Positions 27,452 through 52,299 of a DNA stretch of 64,000 bases are shown in pieces. The position numbers and the translations under genes were made by a program. The notes below the pieces were generated by a model. It was not told the origin of the DNA. It was given only the letters and a program-made list of their open reading frames with translations, and made no database searches. Source of the stretch: Corallococcus sp. AB038B (GTDB lineage Bacteria > Myxococcota > Myxococcia > Myxococcales > Myxococcaceae); assembly GCF_003668955.1 (NCBI RefSeq), contig NZ_RAWO01000002.1, positions 343,605 through 407,604 of the forward strand, read 5' to 3'. Numbering within the stretch: position 1 is the stretch's first letter; every line of letters begins with the position of its first letter.

Positions 27452-30400
27452 TCATGGAGGAGGCCAGCGGGGCGGCAAGAGATCGATGACGCGGCGGCCG
27501 AAGCTCTCCGCGTCCGTTTCAATGGGCTGCCGGAAGTACCTTGGGTCTCCCGGCCCGTAGTAGTGGCCGCCGGAGCCAGGCAGGTTGCGCCACCACCGGC
27601 GCGAGAACGGATGCGACTGTCGGCCAATCGAATACTGGTAGGCCTGATACGCCTGATAGTAGTGCCGCGACTCGTGGACGGCGGTGCCCACCGCGTCGCC
27701 CACGTCCAGGTTCTCGTTGATGACGATGACGCCACGCCGGCTTACGGGCGCGAGCCGGCCCTGGTGCGTGACGTTGAAGTCCCATTCCATCCATCCGTAG
27801 TCCCCAGCCGGCAGGTTCTGGAATTCGACCCGTGGACGACGCGACTGGGGGACGCCCATGGCATCCATTGCCGCACCCACTGACTTCTTGAGGGCCTGCT
27901 GCCGGTCCCGGAGCGACAGCGTGCCGAACGTCGAGGGGTCCAGCTCCGGGATGTCCTCCAGCCCCGCTTGCAGGTCGCGCATCTGCGCCAGCTCGAAGGG
28001 CTTGAACCGGCGGCTGCTCCAGCTGCGGGAGACGGTGACGTCGAAGTCCCCCCAGCCCAGCACGTTGCCGGTGGGACCTATCGTGCGAATGCGCTTCGCG
28101 GTCTCGAACGGTTCGATGATCCGGGCGATCTCTCCCGGCTTCACGTTCGGGTCCAGGCTGTGGATGAGCCCCTTCAGCTGTTTGGGATCGATGTTGTACT
28201 GGGCCAGCAGGCCTGGCTTGCGCTTCGTGCCCTTGAGCGCCGACTCCACCTTCTTCAGCACCTTCAGCGTGGCCCCGACGCGGCCCTTCTTCAGCTCATC
28301 CCTGAAGACAACCATCAGGGCATCGAGCTCCGCGCGGGGGGCCGAACCGTGGGGCATGACCTCCCGGACCAGCGACATCTTGCGCCACGCGTCCGCGATG
28401 CGTTCGACGCGGTCGACGAGCTCCCAGCCCGGCGGAGGCATGGGGGTAATGGGCCCCACGCGCAGCTCGATGGAGATCCGCCACTCGTCGATGGCCTTGG
28501 TCAGCGCCTCCAGGTGCGCCGGCCCCAGGCCTCTCGCCCGGGTCCAGGCCAGGTCCGACAGCTGCGCTTGCAGGTCGTCCAGGTTCTTGCGGAGGTTCTC
28601 CCCCACCGCCGTGAAGTCCTTGAGCCTGGGGGCGTGCTTGCCGCCCTTCACCTCGACCAGGTGGAGCTTCGCGCTCGTCGGATCCGCGGCGTGGTCGAAC
28701 TCGACGATGATTTCATCGATGCCGCTGCCTTGCTCCGCGCCCCTGGGCTTGAAGTCCAGCCGCCGGAATCGCTCCGTCGGCCCCATCCGTTCGCCGAGCA
28801 GCGCCTCCGTGAACGCCCGGGACTTCTGCTTCTCCACCACCTCGCCCGCCTCGGTGGTGCCGTAGCCGCGCGGCTGCCAGCGGTTGCGGGAGCGCTTGGA
28901 CAGGATGAGCTCGATGTATTCCTTCTCACCGCTGGCGCGAGTCACCTCCACCAGCTTGTAGTAACGGAGCTCCTTGGGGCGGTACATGACCTCCTGCCAC
29001 GCGGGGCCGATCTGCGCCACCGTGTCCGCCGGATCCAGCTCCAGCGTGGTGCGCCCACGCTGGAGGTCGTCGAACACCTGGCGCGGTGCGCTCTTGATGT
29101 ACGGATCATCCAGCTCCGGCCCCCCCTTCGAGAACGGCCCCACCTCCGGGTGGTCGCCGTGGAGCACGGTGTTGGGCCACACGTTGTTGGGCCTGCCTGG
29201 CTCCCGGATGACGGGCTTGGTGTCCGTCACGGTGAGCACCGGGGCCGTCTTCTTCCCACCTCCGCGCGTCTTGACCGCCGGCGGCTTCGTCTCCGGAACG
29301 ACCACCTCCGGTGGCTTCGCCGTGGGAAGCTCCATCTCCAGCTGTTTTGGCGTCGGAACCTCCGGCGCTGACGGCTTCGCCGGGGTGAATTCCAGCTCCA
29401 GCTGTCTGGCCCCCTCCGCCTCCGGTGAAGGGACGGGCGGTTCCTTCTTGCTGAACAGCCGTGGAGGCTCATTCAGGTACTGCGGCTTCGAGCGCACGCC
29501 CTGGCCGAACTCCGCCATGTCGAGGGGTGTGAACGCATCCACCTCCTTCATCCGCTGGCGCAGGTTCTCCAGCGTCTTCTTTCCCTGCCGGATGCGGCGG
29601 GTCGCCTCCTCCGGGTCCATGGACACGCCGCGCTTGCCCTCCAGCGACGTGAGCAGCGACTCCTGCGCGTCGATCTCCAGGAGCAGCTTCTTGCGATAGA
29701 GCTCGAACTGCTTCTCGATGGGCAGCTTGTCCCAGTGCCGCAGCGCCCGTTCGTCCAGGGCCTTGATCAGGTCGCGCGTCGCCTTGTCGTGGCGCTGGAG
29801 CAGGTGCAGGCCCTCCTCGCCCAGGTCGGACAGGTCCGCGCCCGCCTTGACGATGATGGTGGGCTTGCCGCGCCGGAACATCGCGACGGCCTGGGCGGAC
29901 TTGCTGCCGGTGAGGGCTTCGAAGTCCGCCTCGGAGATCAGCTCGATGGGCGTGTTCGCGAACGCCTTTCGCTGCGCGGGCGGGATGTGCTCCAGCAGCT
30001 CCTTGCGCATCGCGCGCTGGAGCTGCTGCCGGTCGAAGTCGCCGGACATCTGCTTGAGCAGGCCCTCGTCGAACTCGCGCAGGAACTCCTTCATGTTCCC
30101 GGCGGGGTTCTCCGCCTTCCACTTCTTGAAGAGGGTCAGCCGCTCCTTGGGCGTGCCCCGGAAGTGGAGCAGGTCCTGGGTGCGCGGCGGGACATGGGGC
30201 TTGGAGATGCCGCCCAGCGCGCCGAAGGCCCCGGCCATCACCGCGCCCGGCGCCGCCTGCATCACGGTGCCGGCCAGCACGTTGAAGAGCGCGTTGCCGC
30301 CCTTGTAGTTCTCGTCGTTGAGGACGTTGCCCAGGAACGCGGAGGGCGCGGACTGCACCAGGCCTTCGGCGCCCTGGGCCAGGCCGTGCGCCGCCACGCG

Positions 30401-33400
30401 GGCCATCACCCCGCCTTCCTCCGCCATGCGCGCCAGGAACCCCAGCTTGAGCAGCTTCGTGCCCATGCCAGCGGTGGCCGCGGCGGTGAGGGCGTCCACG
30501 GCGCCCACGCCCGCGTCGACGGCCGCCTCCTCCCAACCGTAGGCGCTGCCCTTCATGGCGGCCTTGGTCAGCATCGTCACCGCGGCCGTCGCCACCGCCA
30601 TGCCCACCAGCACCGGCGTGCTGGCCATGAACGCGCCGAACGCGGCCCAGAACCCCGCGCCCGCGGGCGGAGCGAAGATGCTGACGATGACGCCGATGAT
30701 GATCACCACCGCCATCACCACCGCGGTGAGGACCATCACCAGCCGGTCGGTGATGAAGTCCACCTGCTCGCGGTGCATCTGCACCGACTCGTCGGCGTAA
30801 TCACCCTGGCGCTGCACGCGATCGGACTTCTTCTCCCAGTCGTCCTGCCACTGGCGCAGCCCGTCGGCGGTGTAGTTCTTGTCCCCGGGCTTGGGGCGCA
30901 TCCGCTCGTGCAGCTCCAGCGCGCTCACCTCGGCGTCGAGCGCGGACGCCTGGTCCAGCACCAGCTGGTACTCCGACGACGCCAGGCTGTTGGTGGAGCG
31001 CGCCTCGAAGTGCACCCGGCGCCAGGCCCGGTCCGCCTTCTCGCGGGGCGTGACGGGCTCGCCGTAGTCCACCATGTCCAGGACGTCGAACTCATCGCGT
31101 CCGCCCAGCTCCTCGTCGATGCGCGCGCGGAAGCGCTCGAAGGGCGTGCGCGTGTCGCCAGGGTCGGCGGGGTGGTCCTTGGCCCACTCCTCGGCCATGG
31201 CCTGGATCTCCGCCTTCGTCTTCCCGGCGAAGACCTCCTTGAGCGCGTCCTCGTCCGTGCCCACGCCCTGCACGGCGTACTGAACGATTTCCGCGTCGGT
31301 GAGGTAGCCCTTCTCCAAGAGCGACGCGACGGCGTCCCGGTCCGCGCCGGACGTGTCCATCAGGACGGCCTGCTCGAAGCTCGCCTGGAGGTGCGTGCCC
31401 TCCACGTAGGCGCTGTCGTACTCGGCCGCCAGCGCCTTCATGTTCGCCATGGCGTCGGCCTGGGCCTGGGCCTTCGCCTTGCCGTCCACCTCCTTGCGTT
31501 CCTTCGCGATGCGGGCCTGGACCTTCTCCGGGCTCCACTTGTCCAGGAACTCCACTTCACTGATGCGGCCCTTGCGGCGGTCCTCCTCCGTGAGCGGGCC
31601 TTCGCTGGCGGGCTTGACCTTCGCCTCGTCCAGCGTGCGCTCGATGTCCATTCGCTCCTGGACGTCCAGGTAGCCGTCACGGCGCGCGTCGGCGATCTGC
31701 CGCTTGCCCTGCGCGGACATGGCGTCGCGGATGACCTTGTCGTCCGCGTAGAAGACGCTGGTGTGCTCGATGCGGATGCGCGCGGCATCCACCTGGAGTC
31801 CCTTGTCGTCGCGCAGGCCCTCGATGAGCTTGAGGTCCTCGCCCTTCATCTCGTCGTGGAACGCGGCGCTGAGCGCGCTCTCACCCGTGGTGCGCTCGGT
31901 CCACTCCGGGCCGTATTGCTTCTCATACGACGCGTCGATGGCCTGGTTGCGCTTGAGCAGCTCCGCGCGGAACGTCTTGGTGTCCCAGCCGTACTGCTGC
32001 GCGTCCGCCTCCGTCTCCTTGCGGATGCGGTCGTAGACGCCCTCCATGGCCTTGCGGTCGGTGCCCAGGCCGAAGAACCACCCGCCGCGCATGGCGCGGT
32101 CCATCTCGATGGCGCGCGCGTCCTCGGTGCGGCCCTCCACCAGGGCGTGCATCTCGTCCACGTCGTGTGTCTTGAGCGCGCCGCTGCGCAGCTCGTCGTC
32201 CATCTGGACGACCAGGTCCTTGCCGTACTTCTGCTGGTAGGCCTTCTTGATGGCTTCGATCTGCTCCGGCGTCTTGCCGCGAAGCAGGGTGAGGATGGCG
32301 GCCTCGTCCGTGCCCCAGCCCAAGCCGAAGAAGGTGCCCTCCATGGCGTCGTTCAGCTCGACAGCGGCGGCCTTGGAGGCGTTGCCGGAGAGCAGCGCTT
32401 CCGCCTTGTCCCAGTCGTGCGTGGTGGTGCTGAAGAAGTCGTCCAGCTCGCTCTTGAGCCGCTCGCGCAGGTTCTCGTTGTGCTCCTGCTGGTAGAGGAG
32501 CTCGATGTAGTGGCCCTGGAGCGGGTTGAGGTTGGCGAGCGCGTCGAAGATCTTCTTCTCGTCCGTGCCCCACTGGTCCACGCCCTCCCAGACCTTGAGG
32601 GAGATGTTGCGAGCGCGGTTGCTGAAGAGGGGCTCCTGCTGGTCGACGACGATCTTGAGCCGCTCCAGGTCTGTGGACGCGAGCAGCTCCTTCTCCAGGG
32701 CCTCCATGAGCGGCTTGCGGCGCTGGCCGATGATGCGCACGGCCAGTCCCTCCGCGAGCGCCTGCACCGCGTCCTTGCCACCCTTGCCGTAGTAGGAGAG
32801 CAGGATGGCCTTCTGCTCCTCGCTGAGGGCGTTGTTCCCCTTGATGGTCTCCGCGTCCAGCTCCTCGCCCTGGCGCAGGCGCACCTCCGCGAGGAACAGC
32901 ATGTTCTGGTCCAGCGACGTCTTGTTCTCCGCCGCGCGAGCGGTCTCCCACGCGCGGCTCTCGTCGTGGGCGGCCGCCAGCCAGTCGATGATCCACCCGA
33001 GCAGCCGGTCCCAGAAGCCGCGCTCGTAGCCGATCTGCTTCGCGTGCCAATCGCGGATGACCTCCCGGGCCTCCTTGCCCGCGTCGCGCAGCTCCTGCTG
33101 ATAGCGCTCCACGCTCTGGTCGATGTCGCGCTTCGCCTTCGAGACGACGGCGCCAATCTCCTTGCGGCGGTCGTCCAACCACTTCTTGGTGGGGCGGTAC
33201 GCCTCCGTGGCGGTCTTGAGCTTCACCGGATCATCGCCGGCGTCCTTCTTGAGCTCCCACTCGTCCTGGAGCGCGGCGAGCTCGTAGGCGTGCATCTGGT
33301 CGCTCGCGGCCTTCGCGAAGGCTTCCTTGAAGCGCTTGCCGTTCTGGTCGTACCGGACGACCCAGTTGCTCACCTTGGTGTCCACGGCCGCGATGAGCGC

Positions 33401-35524
33401 GTCGCGTTTGCGCCGGGCCTCGGTCAGGTCGACGCCGCCCTTGATGGCGGCGGCCTTCGCCTCGGACTGCGCGTCGAGCGAGGCGCGCATGCGCGACAGG
33501 GAATCAGCGAACGACTTGCCGCCCTCCTCCAGGCTCTTCTTCGCGTCCTCGTGCGCCTTGCTGAGCGTGCCGGTGGTGGCGGCGTGCGAGTCCACCAGTT
33601 GCTTGCGGCGGGCCTCCACCTTCGCGTCCAGGTCCTCCTTCTTGATCTGCGCGGCGTCCGCGACGCGCTGGAGCTCCGCGGCGAAGATGGGACGTTCCGC
33701 GGTGATGAGAGCAACGCCCCAGGACGCATCCAGACCGCCCGGGACATAGGCTTCGCGGGCCTTCTGGACGGAGGCGTCCGCGTACTTGTCCGGAGCGACG
33801 AGCAGCCGCGCCAGCACGTCGCCAATGTCCACGCGAGCGAAGTCGGGGACGTTGATGGGCGCGGGGGCGGCCTGTTCGAGGACGGTGATGCCCTTCGCGG
33901 GTTCCTTGGGCTGGACCTTCGCCTTCTTCTGCTTGTCTGCCTCGGCGGTGATCTTCTTCTGGAGGCGCGTCCAGTCCTTGAGCTTCTCCGGGTCGGTGGG
34001 CTTGGGGCCGCCGGGCTTGTAGACGAGGTCGCCGAGCGGGCCCTTGATGAGCATGTGCCCGCCGTCGTCGCGCACGAGCTGCGCGCCAATCTCCGGCACA
34101 TGGCCCAGCGGGCTCTTCCGCAGGTCGGGGAGTTTGGCCTCCTTGACGTCCAGCTTCCGTTCGCACTTCGCATCCACCAGCGAGGAGGCCTTGCCGGTGG
34201 GATCGTCCGGGATGGCCGGAAGGTCCTTCGGCTGCTTCGCCGGGGTGATGGCCTTCTTGCCTTCGTCCTCCAGTTGCTTGAGGCGCGCGGCGCGGACCGC
34301 GTTGGGGTCCACGGCGGCCTGGGTGATCTTGAACGTGTAGCGGGGCGCGGGAGGAAGCTGGGGCTCCGGGACCTGCGCCGTGGTGCTGGAGATGCGGCCC
34401 TTCCATGCGGTGACCGGATCCGCGTCCGCGCCCACCGCTGGCGCAGCGGGGATGGGCCCCGCCGTGACAGGTGCCGCCTGCGCAGGAGGCGGCGCGGGAA
34501 GGCTGGCAGGGGGCTCCACCGCCGCGACGGCACCCGTCGGATCCGGAGCGGTTTCGAGACCGTGCTTGATGCCTTGGGCGCCCTGCGCATGGGCCTCGGC
34601 CAGCTGCTTCTGCCACTCCATCGCGGCCGGAGGCACGGGCACCCTGGGGCCCGTGTCGACCGTGGCCTCCGTCTGGATGGAAGGAGGCTCCTGGGGTCCA
34701 GCGCCAGGGGAGGCCTGACGGACGACGATGTGGACATCGCTCTGGCTCGACAGCGCGGACACCAGCGTGTCGATGCGCGCGGCGTCGTCCATGCCGCCGG
34801 GAGCGGTCCCCGTGGGAATGGAAGCGGGCGCGGGAGCTTGCTCATGCGTTGCCAGCTCGCCGCCCGCGCTGGGCGCATCGACGGTGGTGGCTGTAATGGA
34901 TTCGGGCGCGGGAGAAGTGCTGCCCCCGAGTCCCGCCGCTTCCGACTCCGCGGTGCTCGTGGTGGGTTCGAGGTCTGAAGCACGGGCCTCGGCGAGCCGC
35001 GCGGCGGTGTCTCCGAGTTGCTCAGCGGAGCCCAGAGGCAGGACGGCCATGCGTGCCGCATCACGCCGTCGAGCATCCTCCTCTTGCTGCTCGAGGGTCG
35101 CGGGCTGGGACGCGCCAGCCGCCTGCGCGAGCCCGGTGTTCGGTTGTGGCGCGAGCCCATGGATGCCCAGCTCCGCCTCGACGGCGCCGGGCGTGGAGAG
35201 CAGCGCGACCTCCGGCGGGTGGACCGGGTACGGCTCGAAAAGATGCGAGCGCGGACCGCCCAGTGTCCGCCACGCCGGGTCGCTCCACCGGCGCTCCAGA
35301 TCGCGAGCGGCATCACGAAGCACGGGCCCGTGAAGGGCAGGGGCCGAGCCTTTAAGTGACGCGAGCCGCGCCGCCAGCTCACGCGCGGGATTGGACGAGG
35401 AAGGGCCCCGGGGAACGACACCCGGAGCACGAGGAAGGGCCGCGGAGGACGAGGGAGTGCGCCCGGAGTTCTTCCGGAGCATGGCCTTGGCGGAGGCCTT
35501 CGGGCCCTGGTCACGGATGCGCAC
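27452..35524 (-). CDS. Giant (2690 aa) multidomain protein: disordered Pro/Ala-rich N-terminus, coiled coils, at least four annexin repeats, a hydrophobic transmembrane block, and a C-terminal HExxH (HESRH) zincin-like motif; candidate CIS cargo/toxin
   Basis: Annexin-type endonexin motifs GWGTDEKKIFDALANL, GLGWGTDEAAILTLLRGKTPEQIEAIKKAYQQKYGKDL, GLGTDRKAMEGVYDRIRKE and GVGTDEDALKEVFAGKTKAEIQAMAEEW lie at aa ~980-1460. A TM-like block ITDRLVMVLTAVVMAVVIIIGVIVSIF...GMAVATAAVTMLT lies at aa ~1590-1660. AVHESRHYYQ sits about 74 aa from the C-terminus. Strong GC3 coding bias along the whole ORF. Confidence 0.7.
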   Translation of the reverse strand: MRIRDQGPKASAKAMLRKNSGRTPSSSAALPRAPGVVPRGPSSSNPARELAARLASLKGSAPALHGPVLRDAARDLERRWSDPAWRTLGGPRSHLFEPYPVHPPEVALLSTPGAVEAELGIHGLAPQPNTGLAQAAGASQPATLEQQEEDARRRDAARMAVLPLGSAEQLGDTAARLAEARASDLEPTTSTAESEAAGLGGSTSPAPESITATTVDAPSAGGELATHEQAPAPASIPTGTAPGGMDDAARIDTLVSALSSQSDVHIVVRQASPGAGPQEPPSIQTEATVDTGPRVPVPPAAMEWQKQLAEAHAQGAQGIKHGLETAPDPTGAVAAVEPPASLPAPPPAQAAPVTAGPIPAAPAVGADADPVTAWKGRISSTTAQVPEPQLPPAPRYTFKITQAAVDPNAVRAARLKQLEDEGKKAITPAKQPKDLPAIPDDPTGKASSLVDAKCERKLDVKEAKLPDLRKSPLGHVPEIGAQLVRDDGGHMLIKGPLGDLVYKPGGPKPTDPEKLKDWTRLQKKITAEADKQKKAKVQPKEPAKGITVLEQAAPAPINVPDFARVDIGDVLARLLVAPDKYADASVQKAREAYVPGGLDASWGVALITAERPIFAAELQRVADAAQIKKEDLDAKVEARRKQLVDSHAATTGTLSKAHEDAKKSLEEGGKSFADSLSRMRASLDAQSEAKAAAIKGGVDLTEARRKRDALIAAVDTKVSNWVVRYDQNGKRFKEAFAKAASDQMHAYELAALQDEWELKKDAGDDPVKLKTATEAYRPTKKWLDDRRKEIGAVVSKAKRDIDQSVERYQQELRDAGKEAREVIRDWHAKQIGYERGFWDRLLGWIIDWLAAAHDESRAWETARAAENKTSLDQNMLFLAEVRLRQGEELDAETIKGNNALSEEQKAILLSYYGKGGKDAVQALAEGLAVRIIGQRRKPLMEALEKELLASTDLERLKIVVDQQEPLFSNRARNISLKVWEGVDQWGTDEKKIFDALANLNPLQGHYIELLYQQEHNENLRERLKSELDDFFSTTTHDWDKAEALLSGNASKAAAVELNDAMEGTFFGLGWGTDEAAILTLLRGKTPEQIEAIKKAYQQKYGKDLVVQMDDELRSGALKTHDVDEMHALVEGRTEDARAIEMDRAMRGGWFFGLGTDRKAMEGVYDRIRKETEADAQQYGWDTKTFRAELLKRNQAIDASYEKQYGPEWTERTTGESALSAAFHDEMKGEDLKLIEGLRDDKGLQVDAARIRIEHTSVFYADDKVIRDAMSAQGKRQIADARRDGYLDVQERMDIERTLDEAKVKPASEGPLTEEDRRKGRISEVEFLDKWSPEKVQARIAKERKEVDGKAKAQAQADAMANMKALAAEYDSAYVEGTHLQASFEQAVLMDTSGADRDAVASLLEKGYLTDAEIVQYAVQGVGTDEDALKEVFAGKTKAEIQAMAEEWAKDHPADPGDTRTPFERFRARIDEELGGRDEFDVLDMVDYGEPVTPREKADRAWRRVHFEARSTNSLASSEYQLVLDQASALDAEVSALELHERMRPKPGDKNYTADGLRQWQDDWEKKSDRVQRQGDYADESVQMHREQVDFITDRLVMVLTAVVMAVVIIIGVIVSIFAPPAGAGFWAAFGAFMASTPVLVGMAVATAAVTMLTKAAMKGSAYGWEEAAVDAGVGAVDALTAAATAGMGTKLLKLGFLARMAEEGGVMARVAAHGLAQGAEGLVQSAPSAFLGNVLNDENYKGGNALFNVLAGTVMQAAPGAVMAGAFGALGGISKPHVPPRTQDLLHFRGTPKERLTLFKKWKAENPAGNMKEFLREFDEGLLKQMSGDFDRQQLQRAMRKELLEHIPPAQRKAFANTPIELISEADFEALTGSKSAQAVAMFRRGKPTIIVKAGADLSDLGEEGLHLLQRHDKATRDLIKALDERALRHWDKLPIEKQFELYRKKLLLEIDAQESLLTSLEGKRGVSMDPEEATRRIRQGKKTLENLRQRMKEVDAFTPLDMAEFGQGVRSKPQYLNEPPRLFSKKEPPVPSPEAEGARQLELEFTPAKPSAPEVPTPKQLEMELPTAKPPEVVVPETKPPAVKTRGGGKKTAPVLTVTDTKPVIREPGRPNNVWPNTVLHGDHPEVGPFSKGGPELDDPYIKSAPRQVFDDLQRGRTTLELDPADTVAQIGPAWQEVMYRPKELRYYKLVEVTRASGEKEYIELILSKRSRNRWQPRGYGTTEAGEVVEKQKSRAFTEALLGERMGPTERFRRLDFKPRGAEQGSGIDEIIVEFDHAADPTSAKLHLVEVKGGKHAPRLKDFTAVGENLRKNLDDLQAQLSDLAWTRARGLGPAHLEALTKAIDEWRISIELRVGPITPMPPPGWELVDRVERIADAWRKMSLVREVMPHGSAPRAELDALMVVFRDELKKGRVGATLKVLKKVESALKGTKRKPGLLAQYNIDPKQLKGLIHSLDPNVKPGEIARIIEPFETAKRIRTIGPTGNVLGWGDFDVTVSRSWSSRRFKPFELAQMRDLQAGLEDIPELDPSTFGTLSLRDRQQALKKSVGAAMDAMGVPQSRRPRVEFQNLPAGDYGWMEWDFNVTHQGRLAPVSRRGVIVINENLDVGDAVGTAVHESRHYYQAYQAYQYSIGRQSHPFSRRWWRNLPGSGGHYYGPGDPRYFRQPIETDAESFGRRVIDLLPPRWPPP

Positions 35525-35555: not shown

Positions 35556-37997
35556 CTAGGTCATCTCCACATCGAGGACCAGCGAGGCCCGGATGGGATG
35601 TCCATGACTGCTCCAGAAGCGATGGAGCAGGTCAAAGTCATAACTCTCCTGGACGCGAGGTGTGAGCTTGCGGCCATCCAGCTCGTGCGGGAGTCCACGG
35701 GAGAGCAACCCATGCAACACGCCAAGCAGCTCATGTTCCTCCTCCGCGCGGTGTGACCACGCGGAGACGATGAGCCCCAACCGCAGCGCACCGTTCTGGG
35801 TGACAGCCAGCCGGTAGAGCGCGAGCGACACAGCGGGCCGCTTCCCCGCGAGCGCCTCCCGGGTGGGGGAGCCGTGGAGGATGTGGACCTCCTTGAGGAA
35901 GTGTTGTCTGAGCTGCGAATCCAGTGCCTCCTGGAACACTTCCGCCACGCGACGAAGGCGTGTGCCCGCGTCCGAGGGAGCCTCCGCCTCCGGGCGCCGC
36001 GAGAGCCGGCCCAGCTCATACAGCTCCAGCGCGACGGCGCGCTCCAGGTGCTCCTGGGCCAGCGGAGCACCCGCCTGTTCGGCGAGGAAGATGGCCTTGA
36101 GCGCGGCGTTGCGGATGTCGCCGCCCGCCAGCCGGTGCCGCTGCGCCAGTCCCGCCAGGTCGAGAGCCCCCGCGCGAGGCACACCCTCCGGAAGCATCAG
36201 CTCCCAGATGCGGCGGCGCTCGTCGACCTCGGGGAAGGGGAACTCGATGCGCGCGTGGAAGCGCCGCAGGAAGGCTTCATCGATGGCCGTCTGCAGGTTG
36301 GTGGCGAGGATGATCAGCCCGTCGTGACGTTCGATGCGCTGGAGGAGGAAGCCGACCTCCAGGTTGGCGAAGCGGTCATTGGCGTTGCTGACCTCCGTGC
36401 GCGCGGAGAACAGCGAGTCCGCCTCGTCGAAGAACAGCACGGCGCCGGAGCGCTCGCCGTGGGACAGCACCTCGTCGATGTTCTTCTCCGTCTCGCCCAC
36501 GTACTTGCTGACGAGCCGGGACAGGTCGATGACATACAGCGGCCGGCCCACCGCATGGGCGATGACCTCCGCGGCCAAGGTCTTGCCAGTGCCGGAGCGT
36601 CCGGAGAAGAGCGCCACCGGCCCCGTGTGCATCCGGAAGCGACGTGACAGGCCACGCTCTTCGGCGACGCGGTCGCGCTGGGCCACGTAGAACAGCAGTC
36701 GCTCCAAGGCCGCGCGAGTGGTGTCACGCACCACGAGGTCCGCGAAGGTCCGCGACGTCTCCAGCCGGTAGCCATGGCGCAAAGGCACCTGGACAAGCCG
36801 CGAGGCCGCGGCACGAAGCGCATCCGCGTCACCGCCCGGAGCCGAGTCGAACACGCGGCGGATCTCCTGAACCCCGCCCCGAAAGCCAGACGCCAGCCGT
36901 CCCGCGTCCACTTCCGTCAATGACAATCCCCGGACCCGGGCCTCCTCCAGCCACAGGGTCCGCCGCTGGACGAAGCCTGGAGCGGGTGCCTCATGGTGCG
37001 GCACGGCGAAGGGCTGCGCGGAGTCCGCGAGCACCAGGGCCCGCCCGCCAAACCGTTGGCACAATCCAGACAGCGTCTCCGTGACGGAGAGTGCCAGCCC
37101 CCGCTCACCCCCGGACATGTCCACGGCCAGCATCGCGCCGCGCACGGAGGCCAGACGCCACAGGGCCCGGGCCATGGAAACCGGCTCTGGAGCCCCTGCC
37201 CACCGAGCGACAACCAGCGGTACACCGGCTTCGTCAGCGAGGCTCATCGCCACGCCCAGCCGCTCTCCTTCGCCATGCACGACAGCGAACGTCCCGAGTG
37301 ACGAAGACGGCAGCACCTCCGGTCCATGCCATTCCAGCGAGAGCTCGCCCAGCACGGAGGGCCTGGGCAGTTCCAGCAGGGCCTCGCGGACCTCCGGAGC
37401 CAGGTCCACGGGCCGGAGCATGGGAGGAAAAGCGCCAGCGCCCGTCTGCAAAAATCCACCGCCCACCAGGAGTCCGCTGTCGGTCAGGGACGCCAGCAAG
37501 CGCTGCGCGCGAGCAGGCGTGCGTCCCAGGACGGTGAGCAGCAACCGCTCCACGTTCCATCCCTGCGCGGTCTCGTCCTGGAGCACGGCGAACAGGCGCG
37601 AGTACCGGGGCTCCAGCCACGTCGCGAGCAGGAGCAGCAGCGCCTCCTCCTCCACGGTGTCGACGCGAAGCGAAGCCCGCAGCCGCGCGAAGGGAAGGGG
37701 AGGCGAAGTCCCCAGGAGCGGCGTCTCCGCGAGCGCCGAGCTGAAGGCGAGCTCGGCGGTGGAAGGGCGCACGGTGGTGCGCACGGCATCCCAGCCATTC
37801 TCCTGTTCCCCCCGGAGCTTCGAAGCGCGGGCCTCCTCCAGGTCACACACCTGGACGAGCAGCGCATCCAGACGCCTCAGCGTCTCCCCCCACAACGGAT
37901 CCATGGGCGCCTCCAGCCGGCCAGCATACGGAGGGCGGGTGGATCCGGCCATGGACGGGCCTGGAGGGCAGGTTCCACTGCGTTGGTATTCCGCCAA
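35556..37997 (-). CDS. AAA+ ATPase with large N-terminal region (eCIS Afp15/Pvc15-like ATPase by context)
   Basis: Walker A LFSGRSGTGKTLAAEVIA, Walker B VLFFDEADSLF and sensor-1 GLIILATNL sit in the C-terminal half of the 813-aa protein. It is immediately upstream (31-bp gap) of the giant effector-like gene. Alternative starts exist at about 37952 and 37904. Confidence 0.7.
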   Translation of the reverse strand: MAEYQRSGTCPPGPSMAGSTRPPYAGRLEAPMDPLWGETLRRLDALLVQVCDLEEARASKLRGEQENGWDAVRTTVRPSTAELAFSSALAETPLLGTSPPLPFARLRASLRVDTVEEEALLLLLATWLEPRYSRLFAVLQDETAQGWNVERLLLTVLGRTPARAQRLLASLTDSGLLVGGGFLQTGAGAFPPMLRPVDLAPEVREALLELPRPSVLGELSLEWHGPEVLPSSSLGTFAVVHGEGERLGVAMSLADEAGVPLVVARWAGAPEPVSMARALWRLASVRGAMLAVDMSGGERGLALSVTETLSGLCQRFGGRALVLADSAQPFAVPHHEAPAPGFVQRRTLWLEEARVRGLSLTEVDAGRLASGFRGGVQEIRRVFDSAPGGDADALRAAASRLVQVPLRHGYRLETSRTFADLVVRDTTRAALERLLFYVAQRDRVAEERGLSRRFRMHTGPVALFSGRSGTGKTLAAEVIAHAVGRPLYVIDLSRLVSKYVGETEKNIDEVLSHGERSGAVLFFDEADSLFSARTEVSNANDRFANLEVGFLLQRIERHDGLIILATNLQTAIDEAFLRRFHARIEFPFPEVDERRRIWELMLPEGVPRAGALDLAGLAQRHRLAGGDIRNAALKAIFLAEQAGAPLAQEHLERAVALELYELGRLSRRPEAEAPSDAGTRLRRVAEVFQEALDSQLRQHFLKEVHILHGSPTREALAGKRPAVSLALYRLAVTQNGALRLGLIVSAWSHRAEEEHELLGVLHGLLSRGLPHELDGRKLTPRVQESYDFDLLHRFWSSHGHPIRASLVLDVEMT

Positions 37998-39509: not shown

Positions 39510-42242
39510 TTATTGCGGGGAAGACCGGGCTCCCACCAATCCTTTCACCAGATACAGCCGGGAAAGCGCTTCGTTGTAACTGTATGTGTAGAACTTTCCG
39601 TCCTCGGAGATCGCCAGCGTCATCACGGAGATGAGGCCCGGCATGACGCCCCCCGCCGGAAGGGTCAGGTGTGGCGTGCTCGCGCCGGTCTTCACGTCGA
39701 CCCTGGAGACGCGCACCGGGAGCGAGACGCTTCGCAGATAGAGCGCCGTTCCGCTCGCGTCCCAGCCCGCCACCCATTGATTCGTGAACCGGCCGGGGAC
39801 GGTGCCTTGCGCCTCACCCGTCTGGGAGAACAGGCGGAGGCTTCCCTCCGCGTCCACGGTCGCGAGGCGGAGGCCATCGGGTGAGATGACCGTGTGGAAG
39901 CCCGTGCCTTCCTCTGTGATGGGCCTGGGGGCTCCGGAGCCGGGTTCGAAGACCCAGAGCCGGGCAGGACGTCCCTCTTCGTGCGCGCGAAGGAGCAACC
40001 GCTTCCCATCCGGGAACCAGCGCGCCGTGAGCACCGTGGTGACAGGAGCGAGCGACAGCGACCGAGGCTCGCCCGCGCCCGTGGGCAGCAGCAGGAACTC
40101 CATCTGTTCGCCGTAGCGCACCAGCAGCACCTGCTTGCCGTCCGGAGACAGCGCCATGGGGATGCCGTCGCCCAGGCGGATCGGTGGTGCGCCATCGGAG
40201 GTGCGCAGATAGGCGCCGTAGGTGGGGCCCTCCACCTCCGCGCCCTCGGTGAAGAGGAAGGTCCGGCCATCGCGGGACATGTCCGTCATGAACGACGAGT
40301 CCGACCACGTCAGGTCCCGCTCCGTGCCCGCGTGCCCGAACGCCAGCCCCGTGCGGATCACCGGGTGATCCACCAGGACGGAGCCGTCCTGGGAGATGTC
40401 ATGCAGCACCATCCGCCCGGCGATCCGATCCACCGGCCGCGTCGTGCCGCGCAGGTCGACCGCGAACAGCTCGGAGTCCGCGCCTGTACGCGAGGCGGTG
40501 AACCACACCTCGCTTCCATCGGGAGACCACGCCAGGCCCCGGATGCTCGCCCAGTCCGACGAAAGCTCGCGGGGCGGACCGTCCTTCTCCAGCACCCAGA
40601 CCCCGCCCCGGTCGTCCTTGGGATGTGCATGGAACAGAAAGGCGATCCGCGCTCCGTCGGGGGAGACGCGTGCGTGGCTGATCCATCCCTGGGATTCGAA
40701 GCGCACCGTGCCGGGGGGCTGCTCCAGCCGGAAGTTCTCGCCCACGCGGCGCACCACCGCGAGCGGTCCATCCGCACGTCCCCAGTCCGCCTCCAGCACG
40801 CCATCGAGCACGGCCCGGGGCGCGCCGCCCGCGAGCGGCATCAAGCCGAGCGTCCCGCTGCCATGCTCGGCGTCGAAGAACCGGGGCTCGAGCAGCACCG
40901 CCAGCTCCCCCTTCGAGGACGCGGCGAGCACATCCGCGTGCTGCCCCAGCGGTTGTGACAGCGGACGCTCCGTGCGCGCGCTGTAGAGCTCCGCGGGTCC
41001 TCCCTCCCACGCCGCGCCATAGAGCAACGTGTGTCCGTCCGCGGAGAACCGGGCGTTGAGCACGTGGCCCCGGCGGAACGTGACGGGGCGGTACGTCGGG
41101 CGTGAGGACTGCGCCGTTGGCACCGCCGCAGTCGCCGGCCTGTGTCCGAACGCCAGGAAGCCACCCACGACAGACAGCAGCACGGCCGCCGCGGCCACCC
41201 ACAGGGCAGGGCGTGGGAACACTCCGCGCCGCAAGGCCAGGGGCGCACCACGAGCCGCGATGGACTCCAGGGCGAAGGCCAGGTCCTGCGCGGACTGGAA
41301 CCGTTCGCCTGGATCCTTCGCCAGACAGCGAGCAATCACCGTCCCCAGCTCTCCCGGCAGCACGGGAGGCGCATCGCGGAGCGCGGCGCTCATCCGCTCC
41401 ACCGGGCTGTCACCGCCAAAGGGACCACGGCCGCTCACGGCCTCGTAGAGCACCGCGCCGAGTGAGAACACATCCGCGCGAGCATCCACGCCCTGGCCGC
41501 GGATCTGCTCCGGAGCCATGTACCCGGCGGTGCCCACCACCGCGCCGCTCTGGGTGAGCGAGGCGTCCCCGGTGTGCTCGACGCGCTCGGTGAGCCGGGC
41601 CAGCCCGAAGTCGAGGATCCGCGCTCCGCCGTTCGAGCACAGGAAGATGTTCGCGGGCTTGAGGTCTCGGTGGATGACACCCCGCGCGTGCGCGGCCGCG
41701 AGCCCCTGGGACAACTGGATGCCCAGCCGCAGCGCCTGCTCTGGTGGAAGCGGCCCACGCATCAGCCGCGCCCGCAGGGTGCCCCCCTCCAGCCACTCGG
41801 TGACGAGGTACGGCACGTCCTCGTGGGTCCCCACGTCGAACAGCGTGAGCAGGTGGGGATGGGACAGCGCGCCCGCCGCGCGGGCCTCCTGTCGGAAACG
41901 GGCCAGGCGCTCCGCGTCCTGCGCGAACCGGAGCGGGAGCACCTTCAAGGCCACGTCCCGTCCCAGCCGCCCATCGCGAGCCCGGTACACGTCCCCCATC
42001 GCGCCACTGCCCGCATGGGCGACGATGACGTACGGCCCCACCCGCTCCCCAGGAGCGAACGAGCGGGGCGGAGCCGCCTCCACGAACCGGCCCTCCGCGT
42101 GCCACGTCGCCGCGACGGCCGCGAGCAGCGACCCGCAGGAATCGCAGCGGGACAGGTGCGCCTCCGCGAGGGCGCGCTGCTCATGCGGCAGGCGGTCCTC
42201 CACGAAGGCGAGAATCGTTTCCTCGGAGGGACATCCCGACAT
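39510..42242 (-). CDS. Serine/threonine protein kinase with C-terminal TolB-like WD40/beta-propeller domain
   Basis: Hanks kinase motifs: GAMGDVYRA (G-loop), VALKVL (VAIK), HRDLKPANIF, DFGLAR, GTAGYMAPE. A single TM segment is followed by repeated propeller blades (SPDG...VL). Confidence 0.9.
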   Translation of the reverse strand: MSGCPSEETILAFVEDRLPHEQRALAEAHLSRCDSCGSLLAAVAATWHAEGRFVEAAPPRSFAPGERVGPYVIVAHAGSGAMGDVYRARDGRLGRDVALKVLPLRFAQDAERLARFRQEARAAGALSHPHLLTLFDVGTHEDVPYLVTEWLEGGTLRARLMRGPLPPEQALRLGIQLSQGLAAAHARGVIHRDLKPANIFLCSNGGARILDFGLARLTERVEHTGDASLTQSGAVVGTAGYMAPEQIRGQGVDARADVFSLGAVLYEAVSGRGPFGGDSPVERMSAALRDAPPVLPGELGTVIARCLAKDPGERFQSAQDLAFALESIAARGAPLALRRGVFPRPALWVAAAAVLLSVVGGFLAFGHRPATAAVPTAQSSRPTYRPVTFRRGHVLNARFSADGHTLLYGAAWEGGPAELYSARTERPLSQPLGQHADVLAASSKGELAVLLEPRFFDAEHGSGTLGLMPLAGGAPRAVLDGVLEADWGRADGPLAVVRRVGENFRLEQPPGTVRFESQGWISHARVSPDGARIAFLFHAHPKDDRGGVWVLEKDGPPRELSSDWASIRGLAWSPDGSEVWFTASRTGADSELFAVDLRGTTRPVDRIAGRMVLHDISQDGSVLVDHPVIRTGLAFGHAGTERDLTWSDSSFMTDMSRDGRTFLFTEGAEVEGPTYGAYLRTSDGAPPIRLGDGIPMALSPDGKQVLLVRYGEQMEFLLLPTGAGEPRSLSLAPVTTVLTARWFPDGKRLLLRAHEEGRPARLWVFEPGSGAPRPITEEGTGFHTVISPDGLRLATVDAEGSLRLFSQTGEAQGTVPGRFTNQWVAGWDASGTALYLRSVSLPVRVSRVDVKTGASTPHLTLPAGGVMPGLISVMTLAISEDGKFYTYSYNEALSRLYLVKGLVGARSSPQ

Positions 42243-43312: not shown

Positions 43313-44302
43313 TCAGCCCCCCGGACCGAGCAGCCGCGTCAGGCTGAGGTCCACCTGGCTCACGACCAGCGCCGCGATGCTGTCCACCGAGGACGCGCCC
43401 ACCCCCAGGCGTTCGCAGAGCCGCCGCGTCGTGGCCTCCGCCACCTGCTCCCGCGCGCGGCTGAGCCACCGCGACACCGTGGACATGTGGACGCGGTAGA
43501 GCGCCGCGATGGCGTCCAGCGACAGCGACTCCACGTGGTACAGGCGCATCAGCGTGCGGTCCCGGTCGGACAGTTCACCCAGCGCCGTGCGCACGGCCTC
43601 CGTGAAGGCCTCGCGGTACCGCGAGCGCAGGTGTTCGAGCTCTGGCCCCAGCTGCTCGCCGAACGCGGACTCGACGGAGTCCTGCGCGGCGGAGTCGGCC
43701 CGGGCTTCGGAGCGCTTGATGTTGAGCGCGATGCGCAGCGCCGCCACCCGCACCCAGCCGCCCAGCGCGCCGCCACCGGTGAACTCCGAAATCTTCGGCT
43801 CACCGCCAGCAGCCGCCGTGAACAGCTTCTCCCGGAGCACCTGCCGAACCTCCGCGACGAACGCGGGCGAGCGGTCCACGCCGGACACGAACGCGCCGAC
43901 ATCACGGAGGTAGCCATCCTCGAAGAACTGGAGCGCGGCGCGGTCATGCCGCAGGCACCCGAAGGCCAGGTACAGCTCCGAGAAGGCAGGCGAGGCCCCT
44001 TCGAGCGCCTCCAGGAGCGCCGTCTGGGACGTCAGCCGCTGCGCGACGAACGCCACGAAGGCGAGCGGCTCCAGCTCCACCCCGGGCCAGCGCGACCGGG
44101 CGCGGTCGAGCGACGCACGGAGCAGATCCTCCAGACGCGAGGGCTCCGGAAGCGGAGCGGGCGCGCGGCCAGGAGCCGCGAGAAAGGCGGAGGCCAAAGG
44201 AGTGGGCGCGGGGGACACGCCCGGGACGCTACCACCCCCACCGGGCGGACGAAGGCCACCGTCCGCCCGAGCCCACGTTGCTCGTGACCCCCGGAGTTCC
44301 AC
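43313..44302 (-). CDS. RNA polymerase sigma-70 family factor (ECF-like, extended N-terminus)
   Basis: Region 4 [43 protein letters not shown]. Region 2-like: [19 protein letters not shown]. The true start may be downstream of 44302. Confidence 0.6.
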
Positions 44303-44345
44303 CGGCGAGAATGCCGGAGCGGTTCACTTGCCAGAGGACACTGCC

Positions 44346-45434
44346 ATGCGCGTCATCAACTTCAATCCCGGCCCGGCCGGTCTCCCCACGGCAGCGCTGG
44401 AGCGGGCCCGGGACGAGCTGCTCGACTTCCAGGGCACGGGGATGTCGATCATCGAGCACAGCCACCGGGGCAAGGCGTTCGAGGCTGTCCACAACGAGAC
44501 CATCGCCCTCGTGAAGGAGCTGCTGGCCGTTCCGGACACCCACGAGATCCTCTTCCTCCAGGGCGGCGCCTCGCAGCAGTTCGCGCAGGTGCCCATGAAC
44601 TTCATGCCCCAGGGCGGCTCCGCGGACTACGTGGTGACGGGAGGCTGGAGCGAGAAGGCGGTGGACGAGACGCGCTACTACGGCACGCCGCGCATCGCCG
44701 CGAACACGGTGGACAAGGACAAGCGCTTCACGCGCGTCCCCACCCAGGCCGAGCTCCAGTTGGATCCGAAGGCCGCCTACGTCCACATGACGAGCAACAA
44801 CACGCTCTTCGGGACGCAATGGCACACGTTCCCGGAAGTGGGGCAGGTGCCGCTCGTGGCGGACATGAGCTCCGACATCCTGTGGAAGCCCATCGACGTG
44901 AGCCGCTTCGCGCTCATCTACGCGGGAGCCCAGAAGAACATCGGGCCGTCGGGCATCGTCCTGGTGCTGGTGGAGAAGTCCTTCATGGCGAAGGGCCGCA
45001 AGGACATCCCGAAGATCTTCCGCTACACGACCTACGCGGAGAACAACTCGCTCTACAACACGCCGCCCACCTTCTCCATCTACCTCTGCCGCAACGTGCT
45101 CTCGTGGATCAAGGGCGTGGGCGGCCTGAAGCAGGTGGAGGCCTGGAACCGCGAGAAGGGCGACCTGCTGTACACGGCCATCGACCGCAACGCGGGTTTC
45201 TACCGGGCCCCGGTGGAGAAGGCGTCACGCTCGTACATGAACGTCGTGTTCCGCCTGCCGGACGAAAAGCTGGAAGAGGCCTTCGTGGCCGAAGGCGCCA
45301 AGGCCGGCATGGTGGGCATGAAGGGCCACCGCATCACGGGCGGCATCCGCGTGTCCCTCTACAACGCGGTGACCGTGGATCACGTGAAGACGCTCGTCTC
45401 ATTCATGGACGACTTCGCGAAGCGCAACGGGTAG
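44346..45434 (+). CDS. serC: Phosphoserine aminotransferase
   Basis: [15 protein letters not shown]-terminus and full-length similarity to SerC, including the PLP-lysine region ([17 protein letters not shown]). Confidence 0.9.
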
Positions 45435-45449
45435 CGCGCGCACCGGCCC

Positions 45450-45472
45450 ACGTGTCTCAATTCGAGACACGT
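45450..45472 (+). terminator. Candidate terminator hairpin 16 bp after the serC stop
   Basis: ACGTGTCTC-AATTC-GAGACACGT: 9-bp stem, 5-nt loop. Confidence 0.4.
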
Positions 45473-45517
45473 TCCGGTGAGGTTGCTCCCTGTGGCTGTG
45501 TTTGATTGTATCGCCCA

Positions 45518-46264
45518 ATGACTCCCACAGGGGCGAAGCGACTCTTCCGGGCCGTGGTTCCCGACGGCATCTATCAGTGGCTGGCCCATCACAAACGCCA
45601 GGTCTCCATGGGGCGGGTGCGGTGGGGCAGCCTGGGCCGTCAGACGCCCATCGGCACGCACTGGGGACACGACCGCGGCCAGCCCATTGATCGCTATTAC
45701 ATCGAGCGCTTCCTGGCTCGGCACGCGGCCGACGTCCAGGGCCGAACCCTGGAGGTCGGGGACGCGCGCTACACGCGGCGGTTCGGTGCCAGCCGTGTCA
45801 CCCGCTCCGACATCCTCCACGCGCTTCCTGGGAACCCGGAAGCCACCTTCGTGGGAGACATTGCCCACGCGGTCGACATCCCCTCGGATGCGTTCGACTG
45901 CGTCCTCTTCACCCAGGTGTTGCAGTACGTCTTCGATGTCCAGGCCGCCGTGCGACAGCTGCACCGCATCCTCCAGCCTGGCGGCGTGGCGCTGCTGACC
46001 GTGCCCGGTATCATCAAGGTGGACTGGGGCGCGATGGAGCAGTGGCCGGACTGCTGGCGGTTCACCTCCCGCTCCGTCCACCGCCTCTTTGAGCAGTCCT
46101 TCGGCCCCGGCAACGTGCGGGTGGAGTCCTTCGGGAACGTCCGCGCCGCGGTCGCGACCCTGCACGGCCTGGCCCGGGAGGACCTGCGAACCGCGGACCT
46201 CGACGTGCATGACCCCCACTACGAAGTCGTCATCGGCGTCCGCGCCGTGAAGACCCGGGGCTGA
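45518..46264 (+). CDS. Class I SAM-dependent methyltransferase (first gene of the polysaccharide locus)
   Basis: Methyltransferase-like motifs (LEVGDARYTRRFG, FDCVLFTQVLQYV, LQPGGVALLTVPG). First ATG chosen at 45518. Confidence 0.6.
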   Translation: MTPTGAKRLFRAVVPDGIYQWLAHHKRQVSMGRVRWGSLGRQTPIGTHWGHDRGQPIDRYYIERFLARHAADVQGRTLEVGDARYTRRFGASRVTRSDILHALPGNPEATFVGDIAHAVDIPSDAFDCVLFTQVLQYVFDVQAAVRQLHRILQPGGVALLTVPGIIKVDWGAMEQWPDCWRFTSRSVHRLFEQSFGPGNVRVESFGNVRAAVATLHGLAREDLRTADLDVHDPHYEVVIGVRAVKTRG

Positions 46265-46318
46265 GCTACAGCGTCGGCCCACGCGCTACGGCATGCGGGC
46301 TGCAATGGTCAGGGGTGC

Positions 46319-47821: not shown

Positions 47822-47824
47822 GGC

Positions 47825-48817
47825 CTACCGCAGCTTCTGCCAGAGGATGCGGAGCAGGAAGAGTGGATTGCCCAGCAGGTAGCGGACGGCCATCCGGCGG
47901 GGCTCCTGGAGCAGGCGATACATCCACTCCAGTCCCAGCTCGCGCCAGGCAATGGGCGCGCGTTGGATCCGGCCCGAGTAGAAGTCGAACAGCCCTCCCA
48001 CCGTGAGGATGACGGCCTGCGCGGCTCCGGAGAGGTACTCGCGCGCCCACAGCTCCTGCCGGGGGCTGCCCATGCCCACCAGCACCAGGCAGGGGCCCAG
48101 CCTTGAGATGGACTCCGCCAGTGCGCGGGAGCCAGCGGCGGTGAGGAAGCCGTGCGAGACGATGGGGAGCTCCAGGCCCGGGTGGGCCCTTCGCAGGTTC
48201 TCCGCGCACGCCTCCGCCACGCCGGGGGCAGCCCCCACCAGCACCACGGGCCAGCCTCGCGCGGGCGCGTGCTTGCAGAGCAGCGGCAACAGGTCCGTGC
48301 CATTGAGGTTGTGGCGCATGGCCACGCCGAGCAGCGCCGCGCCCACCCGGATGCCAATGCCATCCGGCAGCACCATGTCCGCTTCTGCCAGCGCCCGCGC
48401 GAGCGCCGTGTCGCGCGCCGCCAGGTTCAAGGCGTGCGGATGCACGATGGACACCAGCTTCGCGCGGCCACCTTGTCCTTGCGTGAAGAGCTGCTCCACC
48501 GCCTGTTCGAGCGTGAGGTTGTCCACGCGGGCGGAGACGATGAACGGGCGCACTTCGGGCTGGGCGCTCTCGGGCGGTGCCAACGCGCGAGCCACCGACG
48601 TGCGCAACATCACGCCGAAGTCCGTCGCGGGGGTGCGGCCCTGGAGATAGCGCGCCTCCTCGGCGGCGAGGTCGCCATAGGGCAGGCCGAGCAGCCACCG
48701 CGCCTCCACTGGCGACAGGTAGCCGCGCGGCAGCACCTCGTTGAAGCGCGCGCCCACCAGCGGAGCGCGCCCGCGCAGGACGTCACGCAGCAAGGCTCGG
48801 GGAAGGGGCGCCTTCAT
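47825..48817 (-). CDS. WecB/TagA/CpsF family glycosyltransferase
   Basis: MGSPRQELWA and GGLFDFYSGRIQRAPIAWRELGLEWMYRLLQEPRR are family signatures. The start is adjacent to the upstream GT stop. Confidence 0.85.
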   Translation of the reverse strand: MKAPLPRALLRDVLRGRAPLVGARFNEVLPRGYLSPVEARWLLGLPYGDLAAEEARYLQGRTPATDFGVMLRTSVARALAPPESAQPEVRPFIVSARVDNLTLEQAVEQLFTQGQGGRAKLVSIVHPHALNLAARDTALARALAEADMVLPDGIGIRVGAALLGVAMRHNLNGTDLLPLLCKHAPARGWPVVLVGAAPGVAEACAENLRRAHPGLELPIVSHGFLTAAGSRALAESISRLGPCLVLVGMGSPRQELWAREYLSGAAQAVILTVGGLFDFYSGRIQRAPIAWRELGLEWMYRLLQEPRRMAVRYLLGNPLFLLRILWQKLR

Positions 48818-50507: not shown

Positions 50508-50521
50508 GGGCGGCTGCCGCT

Positions 50522-50857: not shown

Positions 50858-52273
<1,416 letters not shown>

Positions 52274-52299
52274 CACGCTTCCCGGTGCGCGTGGCTCCG

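Follow-up and report, generated by a model that had tools for sequence, protein, structure and literature searches.

A 64,000-nucleotide stretch of the genome of Corallococcus sp. AB038B (contig NZ_RAWO01000002.1, positions 343,605 to 407,604; hereafter the window) contains a giant minus-strand gene whose 2690-amino-acid (aa) product carries four annexin repeats, confirmed between aa 978 and 1490. Three of the repeats are recognized by the Pfam Annexin family, and the remaining one, R3, by a profile of the protein family's own repeats together with a structural model. With a probability that we put at roughly 60%, the gene encodes a polymorphic toxin of a Corallococcus extracellular contractile injection system (eCIS), in which the annexin repeats and the neighbouring transmembrane (TM) segments would act as a module for membrane binding and translocation. 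Annexin repeats as such are already known, both from a published orthologue of this protein and from eCIS-linked toxins; what is possibly new is that they form part of a fixed scaffold, shared by a large family linked to eCIS ATPases, and that a variable cassette can be delimited in Corallococcus.

Four annexin repeats in a giant Corallococcus protein

The initial annotation of this DNA, made from its letters alone, had proposed at least four tandem annexin repeats in a giant bacterial protein, in a span that corresponds to aa 979-1462 of the 2690-aa product. Pfam, a sequence search of the PDB and the predicted fold all agree with four repeats, which we designate R1 to R4 (Table 1). Scored against Pfam Annexin (PF00191, a profile of roughly 66 residues with a curated cut-off of 25 bits), the whole protein reached 73.1 bits (E=1.9e-20), and when the repeats were scored one by one R1, R2 and R4 each exceeded the cut-off alone. 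R3 gave no Pfam Annexin match when scored alone and was detected by a profile built iteratively from the repeats of the family; R4 is the repeat conserved across the whole family. A phmmer search of PDB sequences matched annexins VI, V and IV at E=1e-17 to 1e-12, with R2 aligning to repeats of annexins VI and V, and R4 finding its best match in repeat 6 of annexin VI.

Endonexin-type motifs are found at aa 984 (QWGTD), 1069 (GWGTD), 1152 (GLGTD) and 1420 (GVGTD). The first of these had initially been given as GWGTD; its leading residue is Q, such that the AB loop of R1 reads Q-W-G-T, and G-x-G-T is found in R2, R3 and R4, that of R3 being invariant in the aligned homologues. Aromatic inserts of 6 residues, absent from distant relatives, occupy the AB loops of R2, which is extended and reads GTFFGLGWGTDE (GTFFGLGWGTD), and of R3 (GGWFFGLGTDR). 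An acidic residue had been expected about 38 aa further on, and this holds for R1 and R2, where E1026 and E1111 lie 39 positions after the motif Thr (D/E in 12/12 homologues each). In the other two repeats the equivalent residue is displaced by inserts, of 9 residues in R4 (E1472, D/E in 12/12 homologues) and of greater length in R3 (E1225, 11/12). Judged from these residues, the repeats appear to contain the signature of a type II Ca2+ site, namely G-x-G-T followed by a later acidic residue.

The motifs are spaced 85, 83 and 268 aa apart and do not follow the strict 70-aa period that had been anticipated. The layout of three repeats, an insert and a further repeat is shared with three relatives, P0020, P0022 and P0024, the last of which is a Georgenia protein. 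No tandem repeat was found at the DNA level in the annexin region, which argues that the repeats are old. The module as a whole is strongly acidic, with a net charge of -37.

We modelled aa 960-1500 with AlphaFold2 from 12 aligned homologues (mean predicted local distance difference test score, pLDDT, 85; predicted template modelling score, pTM, 0.77). In the model, one helix precedes and four follow each G-x-G-T loop, the predicted counterpart of the A-E five-helix pattern of the right-handed annexin superhelix, and R3 conforms to it with elongated helices B and C. Fold comparison returned annexins as the best matches, bearing out the annexin assignment. The arrangement departs from that of the eukaryotic annexins A5, A6 and A2 and the giardins in several ways: the repeats form part of a multidomain protein of 2690 aa, about 170 aa intervene between R3 and R4, aromatic inserts occur in the AB loops of R2 and R3, and the model does not form the canonical disc.

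The closest proteins are from C. exiguus (94% identical) and from C. coralloides DSM 2259, whose COCOR_03294 is 81% identical over its full length. The latter (gi|380729140) was described by Kodavali et al. 2014 (PLoS One 9:e85428, PMC3894181), who placed annexin domains at residues 970-1040, 1045-1125 and 1415-1480, noted that gaps between domains might conceal further repeats, and found that gene neighbourhoods gave no general functional clue. The published domains are at the positions of R1, R2 and R4, and the flanking genes are shared. That paper differs from the present analysis in that it has no third, divergent repeat and makes no mention of injection systems, and the COCOR_03294-type locus differs from ours in the C-terminal 660 aa of the giant protein and the two downstream open reading frames (ORFs), which are only 30-57% identical.

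A conserved scaffold with a variable toxin-like tail

Two TM-type segments begin about 105 aa after the last annexin repeat. They are followed by an Ala/Gly/Val-rich region that is possibly membrane-active, and then by a conserved stretch, module 1, in which E1904, H1907 and Q1910 are invariant within the motif EEGLHLLQ. Module 1 ends in PQYLNEPPRLFSK (aa 2014-2026; 29447..29485, minus strand), and it is here that the variable tail begins. Pfam returned no match to module 1. Its x-E-x-x-H-x-x-Q motif, with beta strands before it, recalls HExxH..Q, a likeness of motif only.

We searched 1.84 billion representative proteins with a profile of aa 1780-2690, which recovered 569 clusters (50% identity) at E<=1e-3 and 261 at E<=1e-30, mostly of proteins of 2000-3300 aa. 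From the best 150 hits, 87 representatives of at least 1900 aa were newly retrieved, and 85 of these have at least one annexin-like repeat by the family profile. The membrane-proximal repeat was independently matched by Pfam Annexin in 47 of the 85 (best E=1.9e-15), with no competing family. Among 40 listed members, one of which lacks a repeat, 130-180 aa separate the end of the last repeat from a strongly hydrophobic segment, and module 1 comes a few hundred residues after that segment. Pfam matches in 20 diverse full-length members comprised Annexin in 11, and eCIS_core (DUF4157; E=1e-30), a WHH nuclease and Colicin-DNase in one each. From these sequences the family appears to have a fixed layout, in which one or more annexin repeats are followed by a TM segment, by module 1 ending in PRLFSK, and by a variable toxin tail. 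The initial annotation had called annexins rare in bacteria, which overstates the case given an orthologue published in 2014 and a scaffold family of this size, nearly all of whose full-length members possess an annexin-like repeat. To our knowledge, this family of 2000-3300-aa annexin-TM-module 1 proteins has not previously been described as a family. We also observed a motif of the form [PEA][PAE]RLF[SGATN][KR] in 111 of 158 relatives, with more than one copy in 14, and some relatives have up to five copies of module 1.

The tail of the Corallococcus protein contains two further domains. In module 2, the D and E-x-K of the motifs listed in Table 1 are invariant in 10 aligned homologues, and the model places G-x-D and E-x-K on consecutive strands of a domain with the order alpha-beta-beta-beta-alpha-beta. 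Motifs and model together predict a PD-(D/E)xK nuclease-like domain, for which neither Pfam nor the fold search gave a supporting match. Module 3 bears an HExxH motif and is putatively a zincin-like metallopeptidase; its profile had no meaningful match among PDB sequences, and a Foldseek search of the C-terminal model against the PDB gave none at E <= 0.001. The giant protein and the small ORFs were likewise without a match in NCBIfam and PHROGs.

In relatives, the tail contains PT-HINT, Gln_deamidase_2 or Ntox4 domains and, in one case, a weak match to Tox-REase-7. In a comparison of 104 family members, the 250 aa that precede the PRLFSK-type motif proved similar in 100% of pairs and the tails beyond it in 17%; the family has a conserved scaffold with interchangeable C-terminal toxin domains. 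The same boundary is evident at close range. Compared with the protein from a C. coralloides-type locus (L003), the giant protein is 90-96% identical from its N-terminus through module 1, and past aa 2028 identity falls sharply, to 49% for the linker, 46% for module 2, 30% for aa 2400-2470 and 57% for module 3. The two ORFs that follow, ORF174 and ORF256, are 43% and 53% identical to their L003 counterparts, and the genes that flank this region, encoding the ATPase and an FGE-like protein, return to 96% and 94%, respectively. The tail, ORF174 and ORF256 thus diverge between conserved flanks, a pattern that suggests an exchanged or diversified toxin-immunity cassette.

Both small ORFs are candidate immunity genes. 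Neither has a family match, and a homologue search with ORF256 found only hypothetical Corallococcus proteins. Homologues of ORF256 (27-39% identity) lie downstream of the relatives P0026, P0033 and P0025 (loci L001, L004 and L006). ORF256 is conserved beside distant relatives that share module 2.

An injection-system locus around the giant gene

The gene immediately upstream encodes an AAA+ ATPase of the type found in eCIS loci (AAA, E=1e-24; WHD, winged helix, 1.4e-7; weak Pvc16_N, 7.9e-4), the AAA domain of which is of the Cdc48/VCP type. Convergent with these genes is part of an eCIS-like structural operon that includes Baseplate_J, a TIGR02243 baseplate protein, a gp5/VgrG-like spike, a 1213-aa Tail_P2_I-Kelch fusion, a 2535-aa DUF6519/right-handed beta-helix protein that is probably a fibre or receptor-binding protein, and further ORFs, amongst them one that directly follows the spike gene and whose 536-aa product gives a weak tape-measure match. 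Genes for the sheath and tube must be located past the window's left edge. If a gene counts as eCIS-linked when it lies inside or beside an eCIS operon, no more than about 10 genes from core genes, the giant gene is linked: it adjoins the ATPase gene, and Baseplate_J, Tail_P2_I and the spike are encoded in the window. The earlier suggestion of a membrane-targeting effector would fit this context of an adjacent injection-system ATPase and what appears to be a polymorphic toxin tail.

Distant relatives (24-52% identity, 1700-3150 aa) are found in comparable surroundings. One lies directly after an AAA(+WHD) ATPase in each of L001, L005 and L006 (metagenomic or genomic) and in the P0020 locus, and in Micromonospora pattaloongensis (L004) the relative P0033 is inside an operon that is syntenic gene by gene with that of the window (identity to the spike 59%, the 536-aa protein 38%, a 720-aa protein 36%, a 244-aa protein 34% and the ATPase 50%). 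The C. coralloides-type locus conserves a block of the ATPase, the giant protein and proteins of 175, 254 and 505 aa, along with its other flank. P0032 (L002, metagenome contig Ga0394872_0000890), with five regular tandem 72-aa annexin repeats, adjoins a type III secretion cluster, not an eCIS ATPase, and has an Imm49 immunity gene after it.

A tape measure or tube-lumen protein with a lytic C-terminal domain would likewise be expected to be encoded in an injection locus and to have long helices, hydrophobic segments and an HExxH domain at its C-terminus. The example is Pb2 of phage T5, in which a coiled coil and membrane-inserting segments are found together with a C-terminal metallopeptidase. 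We consider such a role very improbable for the giant protein and have rejected it on four grounds. With about 1.5 Å for each residue, a protein of 2690 aa would set a tube length of about 400 nm, and known eCIS are about 100-120 nm long. The gene follows that of the ATPase, in the usual place for toxin genes, and a tape-measure gene would be expected upstream of the ATPase, beside those for tube and spike. The giant protein has a polymorphic C-terminus, and tape measures do not. Lastly, the 536-aa protein after the spike gene provides a separate candidate that is conserved in the syntenic Micromonospora locus.

As cargo of an eCIS, the giant protein would have published parallels. Geller et al. 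2021 (Nat Commun 12:3743, PMC8213781) list Annexin as a domain enriched in eCIS loci, and Zhang et al. 2012 (Biol Direct 7:18, PMC3482391) found annexin domains in toxins delivered by Photorhabdus virulence cassettes (PVC) and proposed that they are membrane-breaching accessories. The PVC/eCIS annexin toxins of Haliangium and Microscilla resemble the giant protein in having an annexin followed by an enzymatic toxin domain and in being linked to phage-tail-like injection genes. Their annexin domain is single and is accompanied by a PVC-metallopeptidase (DUF4157/eCIS_core) at the N-terminus, whereas the giant protein has four repeats, a TM hairpin, no detected eCIS_core and a different module before the tail. 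A second parallel is Afp18 of the Serratia entomophila antifeeding prophage, a 264-kDa toxin that is injected by an eCIS (bioRxiv 10.1101/2023.11.13.566157), such that size is no obstacle to eCIS cargo. Afp18 is likewise giant and partly unstructured, is encoded after the eCIS ATPase gene and is carried by its particle, as the Corallococcus protein presumably is. It differs in being insect-targeting, and no search revealed sequence similarity between the two.

A possible route across the target membrane

We infer each step of the route outlined here, which matches the proposal of Zhang et al. 2012 (PMC3482391). The upstream Cdc48-like AAA ATPase would help to bring the protein, in a largely unfolded state, into the particle or onto it. 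After injection, the acidic annexin module would pass from the low-Ca2+ cytoplasm of the producer to millimolar Ca2+ outside it, and may there bind anionic phospholipids by way of its type II Ca2+ sites and of the aromatic loops in R2 and R3. Binding would bring the neighbouring hydrophobic and Gly/Ala-rich segments into position for membrane insertion, and the C-terminal toxin domains could then be carried across or released, with module 1 perhaps sharing in their processing. ORF174 and ORF256 would protect the producer and its kin.

Several points weigh against this reading of the giant protein as a delivered toxin. Strong TM segments are awkward for cargo inside a 4-nm tube, and we know of none in characterized eCIS cargo. 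Neither the giant protein nor its operon neighbours had a Pfam match to eCIS_core/DUF4157. The model of the annexin module does not reproduce the canonical curved disc of four repeats with its I/IV and II/III modules, and only 102-125 of its residues align to full-length annexins. Module 3 scores just under the DUF6782 cut-off. In L003, the 10 kb beyond the cassette comprise polyketide synthase (PKS)/lanthipeptide genes and no eCIS structural genes, and toxin cassette and structural genes are therefore not always adjacent within Corallococcus. ORF256 may act as a partner or chaperone and not in immunity, because it is kept beside relatives with different extreme C-termini. Finally, Ca2+ and phospholipid binding by the giant protein, and its delivery, are properties that we infer.

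The TM segments in particular raise the main alternative, that the giant protein is a component of the producer's own membrane, with the TM hairpin in the Corallococcus inner membrane and the cytoplasmic annexin and N-terminal regions tethering or regulating the particle, or setting off lysis and its release, in analogy to the membrane adaptors proposed for cytoplasmic contractile injection systems in Streptomyces. All family members have a strong TM segment at a fixed position, the absence of a Sec signal means that the N-terminus and annexins would face the cytoplasm, and the scaffold is conserved with the ATPase across phyla as a core component might be. Such an arrangement sits poorly with free Ca2+ in the bacterial cytoplasm, which is too low for classical annexin binding. 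A cytosolic, membrane-anchored topology was also predicted for a Burkholderiales annexin toxin by Kodavali et al. 2014 (PMC3894181). An anchor would not be expected to have swappable toxin tails (Ntox4, WHH, Colicin-DNase, deamidase, PT-HINT), nor downstream ORFs that diversify with it or an Imm49 neighbour, and we judge this alternative unlikely. Storage in the membrane followed by extraction by the ATPase could reconcile it with a role as cargo.

The same tails and neighbours bear on what a delivered toxin would act against. Corallococcus is a soil predator of bacteria, and this prey, the WHH, Colicin-DNase and PD-(D/E)xK-like tails typical of interbacterial toxins, and the self-protection implied by the co-diversifying downstream ORFs and by Imm49 beside one relative, all suggest a toxin active on bacteria. 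An effector against eukaryotic prey or grazers such as amoebae, fungi and nematodes, in which the annexin module would mimic those of the host and bind phosphatidylserine or phosphatidylinositol 4,5-bisphosphate in eukaryotic membranes, is in our estimation decidedly improbable. It would account for the best sequence matches being animal annexins V and VI, and Geller et al. 2021 (PMC8213781) list Annexin as a eukaryote-like eCIS domain with a predicted anti-eukaryotic role.

If the giant protein is an eCIS toxin, a bacterial annexin of unexplained function is now tied to a concrete machine and to a toxin-immunity cassette. More tentatively, and doubtful as it stands, the combination of annexin, TM segment and module 1 might be an ancient, Ca2+-switched translocation device that takes diverse toxin tails through the target membrane after injection and defines a lineage of injection systems, with several hundred sequence clusters spread over Myxococcota, Actinomycetota and uncultured phyla. 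On that view the main role of bacterial annexins would be in toxin delivery, and PRLFSK, much like VENN in CdiA, would be a boundary for processing or recombination. Ca2+-switched insertion, if it occurs, would help to explain how injected nuclease-type toxins cross the last membrane, and the annexin-TM block could be a portable module for engineered eCIS delivery.

Gene structure and other features of the window

Table 1. Features of the giant gene and its surroundings, in window coordinates.
Feature	Coordinates	Strand	Remarks
Giant gene, 2690 aa / 295 kDa	27452..35524	minus	Stop codon included; orthologue of C. coralloides COCOR_03294
N-terminal region, aa 1-560	33845..35524	minus	Ala/Pro-rich low complexity (A 17%, P 13%)
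Conserved helical region, aa 561-959	32648..33844	minus	Weak coiled-coil-type Pfam matches only
Annexin repeat R1, aa 978-1045	32390..32593	minus	Pfam 25.7 bits, E=1.2e-5; family profile 63.7 bits
Annexin repeat R2, aa 1059-1130	32135..32350	minus	Pfam 41.2 bits, E=1.8e-10
Divergent annexin repeat R3, aa 1143-1240	31805..32098	minus	Family profile 36.1 + 18.9 bits (two pieces)
Helical insertion of ~170 aa between R3 and R4, aa 1241-1409	31298..31804	minus	Long helices in the model, pLDDT ~85-95
Annexin repeat R4, aa 1410-1490	31055..31297	minus	GVGTDE, membrane-proximal; Pfam 25.2 bits
Two TM-type segments, aa 1595-1617 (strong) and 1625-1653 (weaker)	30566..30742	minus	Kyte-Doolittle maxima 3.25 and 1.78
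Ala/Gly/Val-rich region, aa 1654-1775	30200..30565	minus	Small-residue repeats; A 23%, G 14%, V 12%
Conserved 'pre-toxin' module 1, aa 1780-2027	29444..30187	minus	Invariant columns across the family
Module 2, aa 2160-2400, predicted PD-(D/E)xK nuclease-like toxin domain	28325..29047	minus	Motifs G-x-D (GIDEII, aa 2268) and E-V-K (aa 2291-2293)
Module 3, aa 2470-2690, zincin-like putative metallopeptidase toxin domain	27455..28117	minus	HExxH is HESRH, aa 2617-2621
ORF174, 174 aa	26915..27439	minus	Two CxxC pairs (zinc-ribbon-like); 12 nt downstream of the giant gene; candidate immunity protein
ORF256, 256 aa	26129..26899	minus	Candidate immunity or partner protein for module 2
HEAT / FGE-sulfatase-like protein, 504 aa	24615..26129	minus	Last gene of the operon; Pfam FGE-sulfatase E=6.8e-8
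AAA+ ATPase, 813 aa, eCIS Afp15/Pvc15 type	35556..37997	minus	31 nt upstream of the giant gene
Contractile-injection (eCIS-like) structural operon, partial	57..24188	plus	Convergent; family matches and synteny with Micromonospora pattaloongensis

The window has a G+C content of about 70%, and spurious long ORFs are common in it for that reason. G+C at the third and second codon positions (GC3 and GC2) is 0.91 and 0.46 in the minus-strand frame of the giant gene. An ORF of 1747 aa on the plus strand (29735..34978) has a GC3 of 0.70 and an Arg/Leu/Gly-rich nonsense translation, and was dismissed as a high-GC artefact. The GTG start of the giant gene is supported by the conservation of the N-terminus, MRIR[D/E]QG, in all orthologues. 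The Ala/Pro-rich N-terminal region had no Pfam match and no Sec-type hydrophobic signal, and may possibly be a packaging region; aa 561-959, which follow it, are 85-98% identical among Corallococcus orthologues and 54% identical to P0020.

Of the 504-aa FGE-like protein that ends the operon, L001 and L006 conserve the N-terminal 150 aa. The end of the structural operon is occupied by a Pro/Arg-rich ORF of about 400 aa (22255..23460, plus strand) without a family match, and the same relative place in the Micromonospora locus is taken by a 390-aa gene without detected similarity to it. Where the window has the structural operon, L003 has PP-binding/AMP-binding, LanC and Lant_dehydr genes (21093..28127 of that locus).

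A 910-aa Ser/Thr protein kinase (39510..42242, minus strand) has a zf-HC2-like motif at its N-terminus and WD40/PD40 beta-propeller repeats at its C-terminus. The C. coralloides-type locus conserves it, and L001 has a kinase-NtrC fusion near its cassette. The remainder of the window consists of housekeeping genes and a polysaccharide biosynthesis cluster (44202..62492) that encodes several GT4 glycosyltransferases, WecG, a Wzz-like protein and Polysacc_synt_3, as well as an aminotransferase, a methyltransferase and an NtrC-type response regulator.

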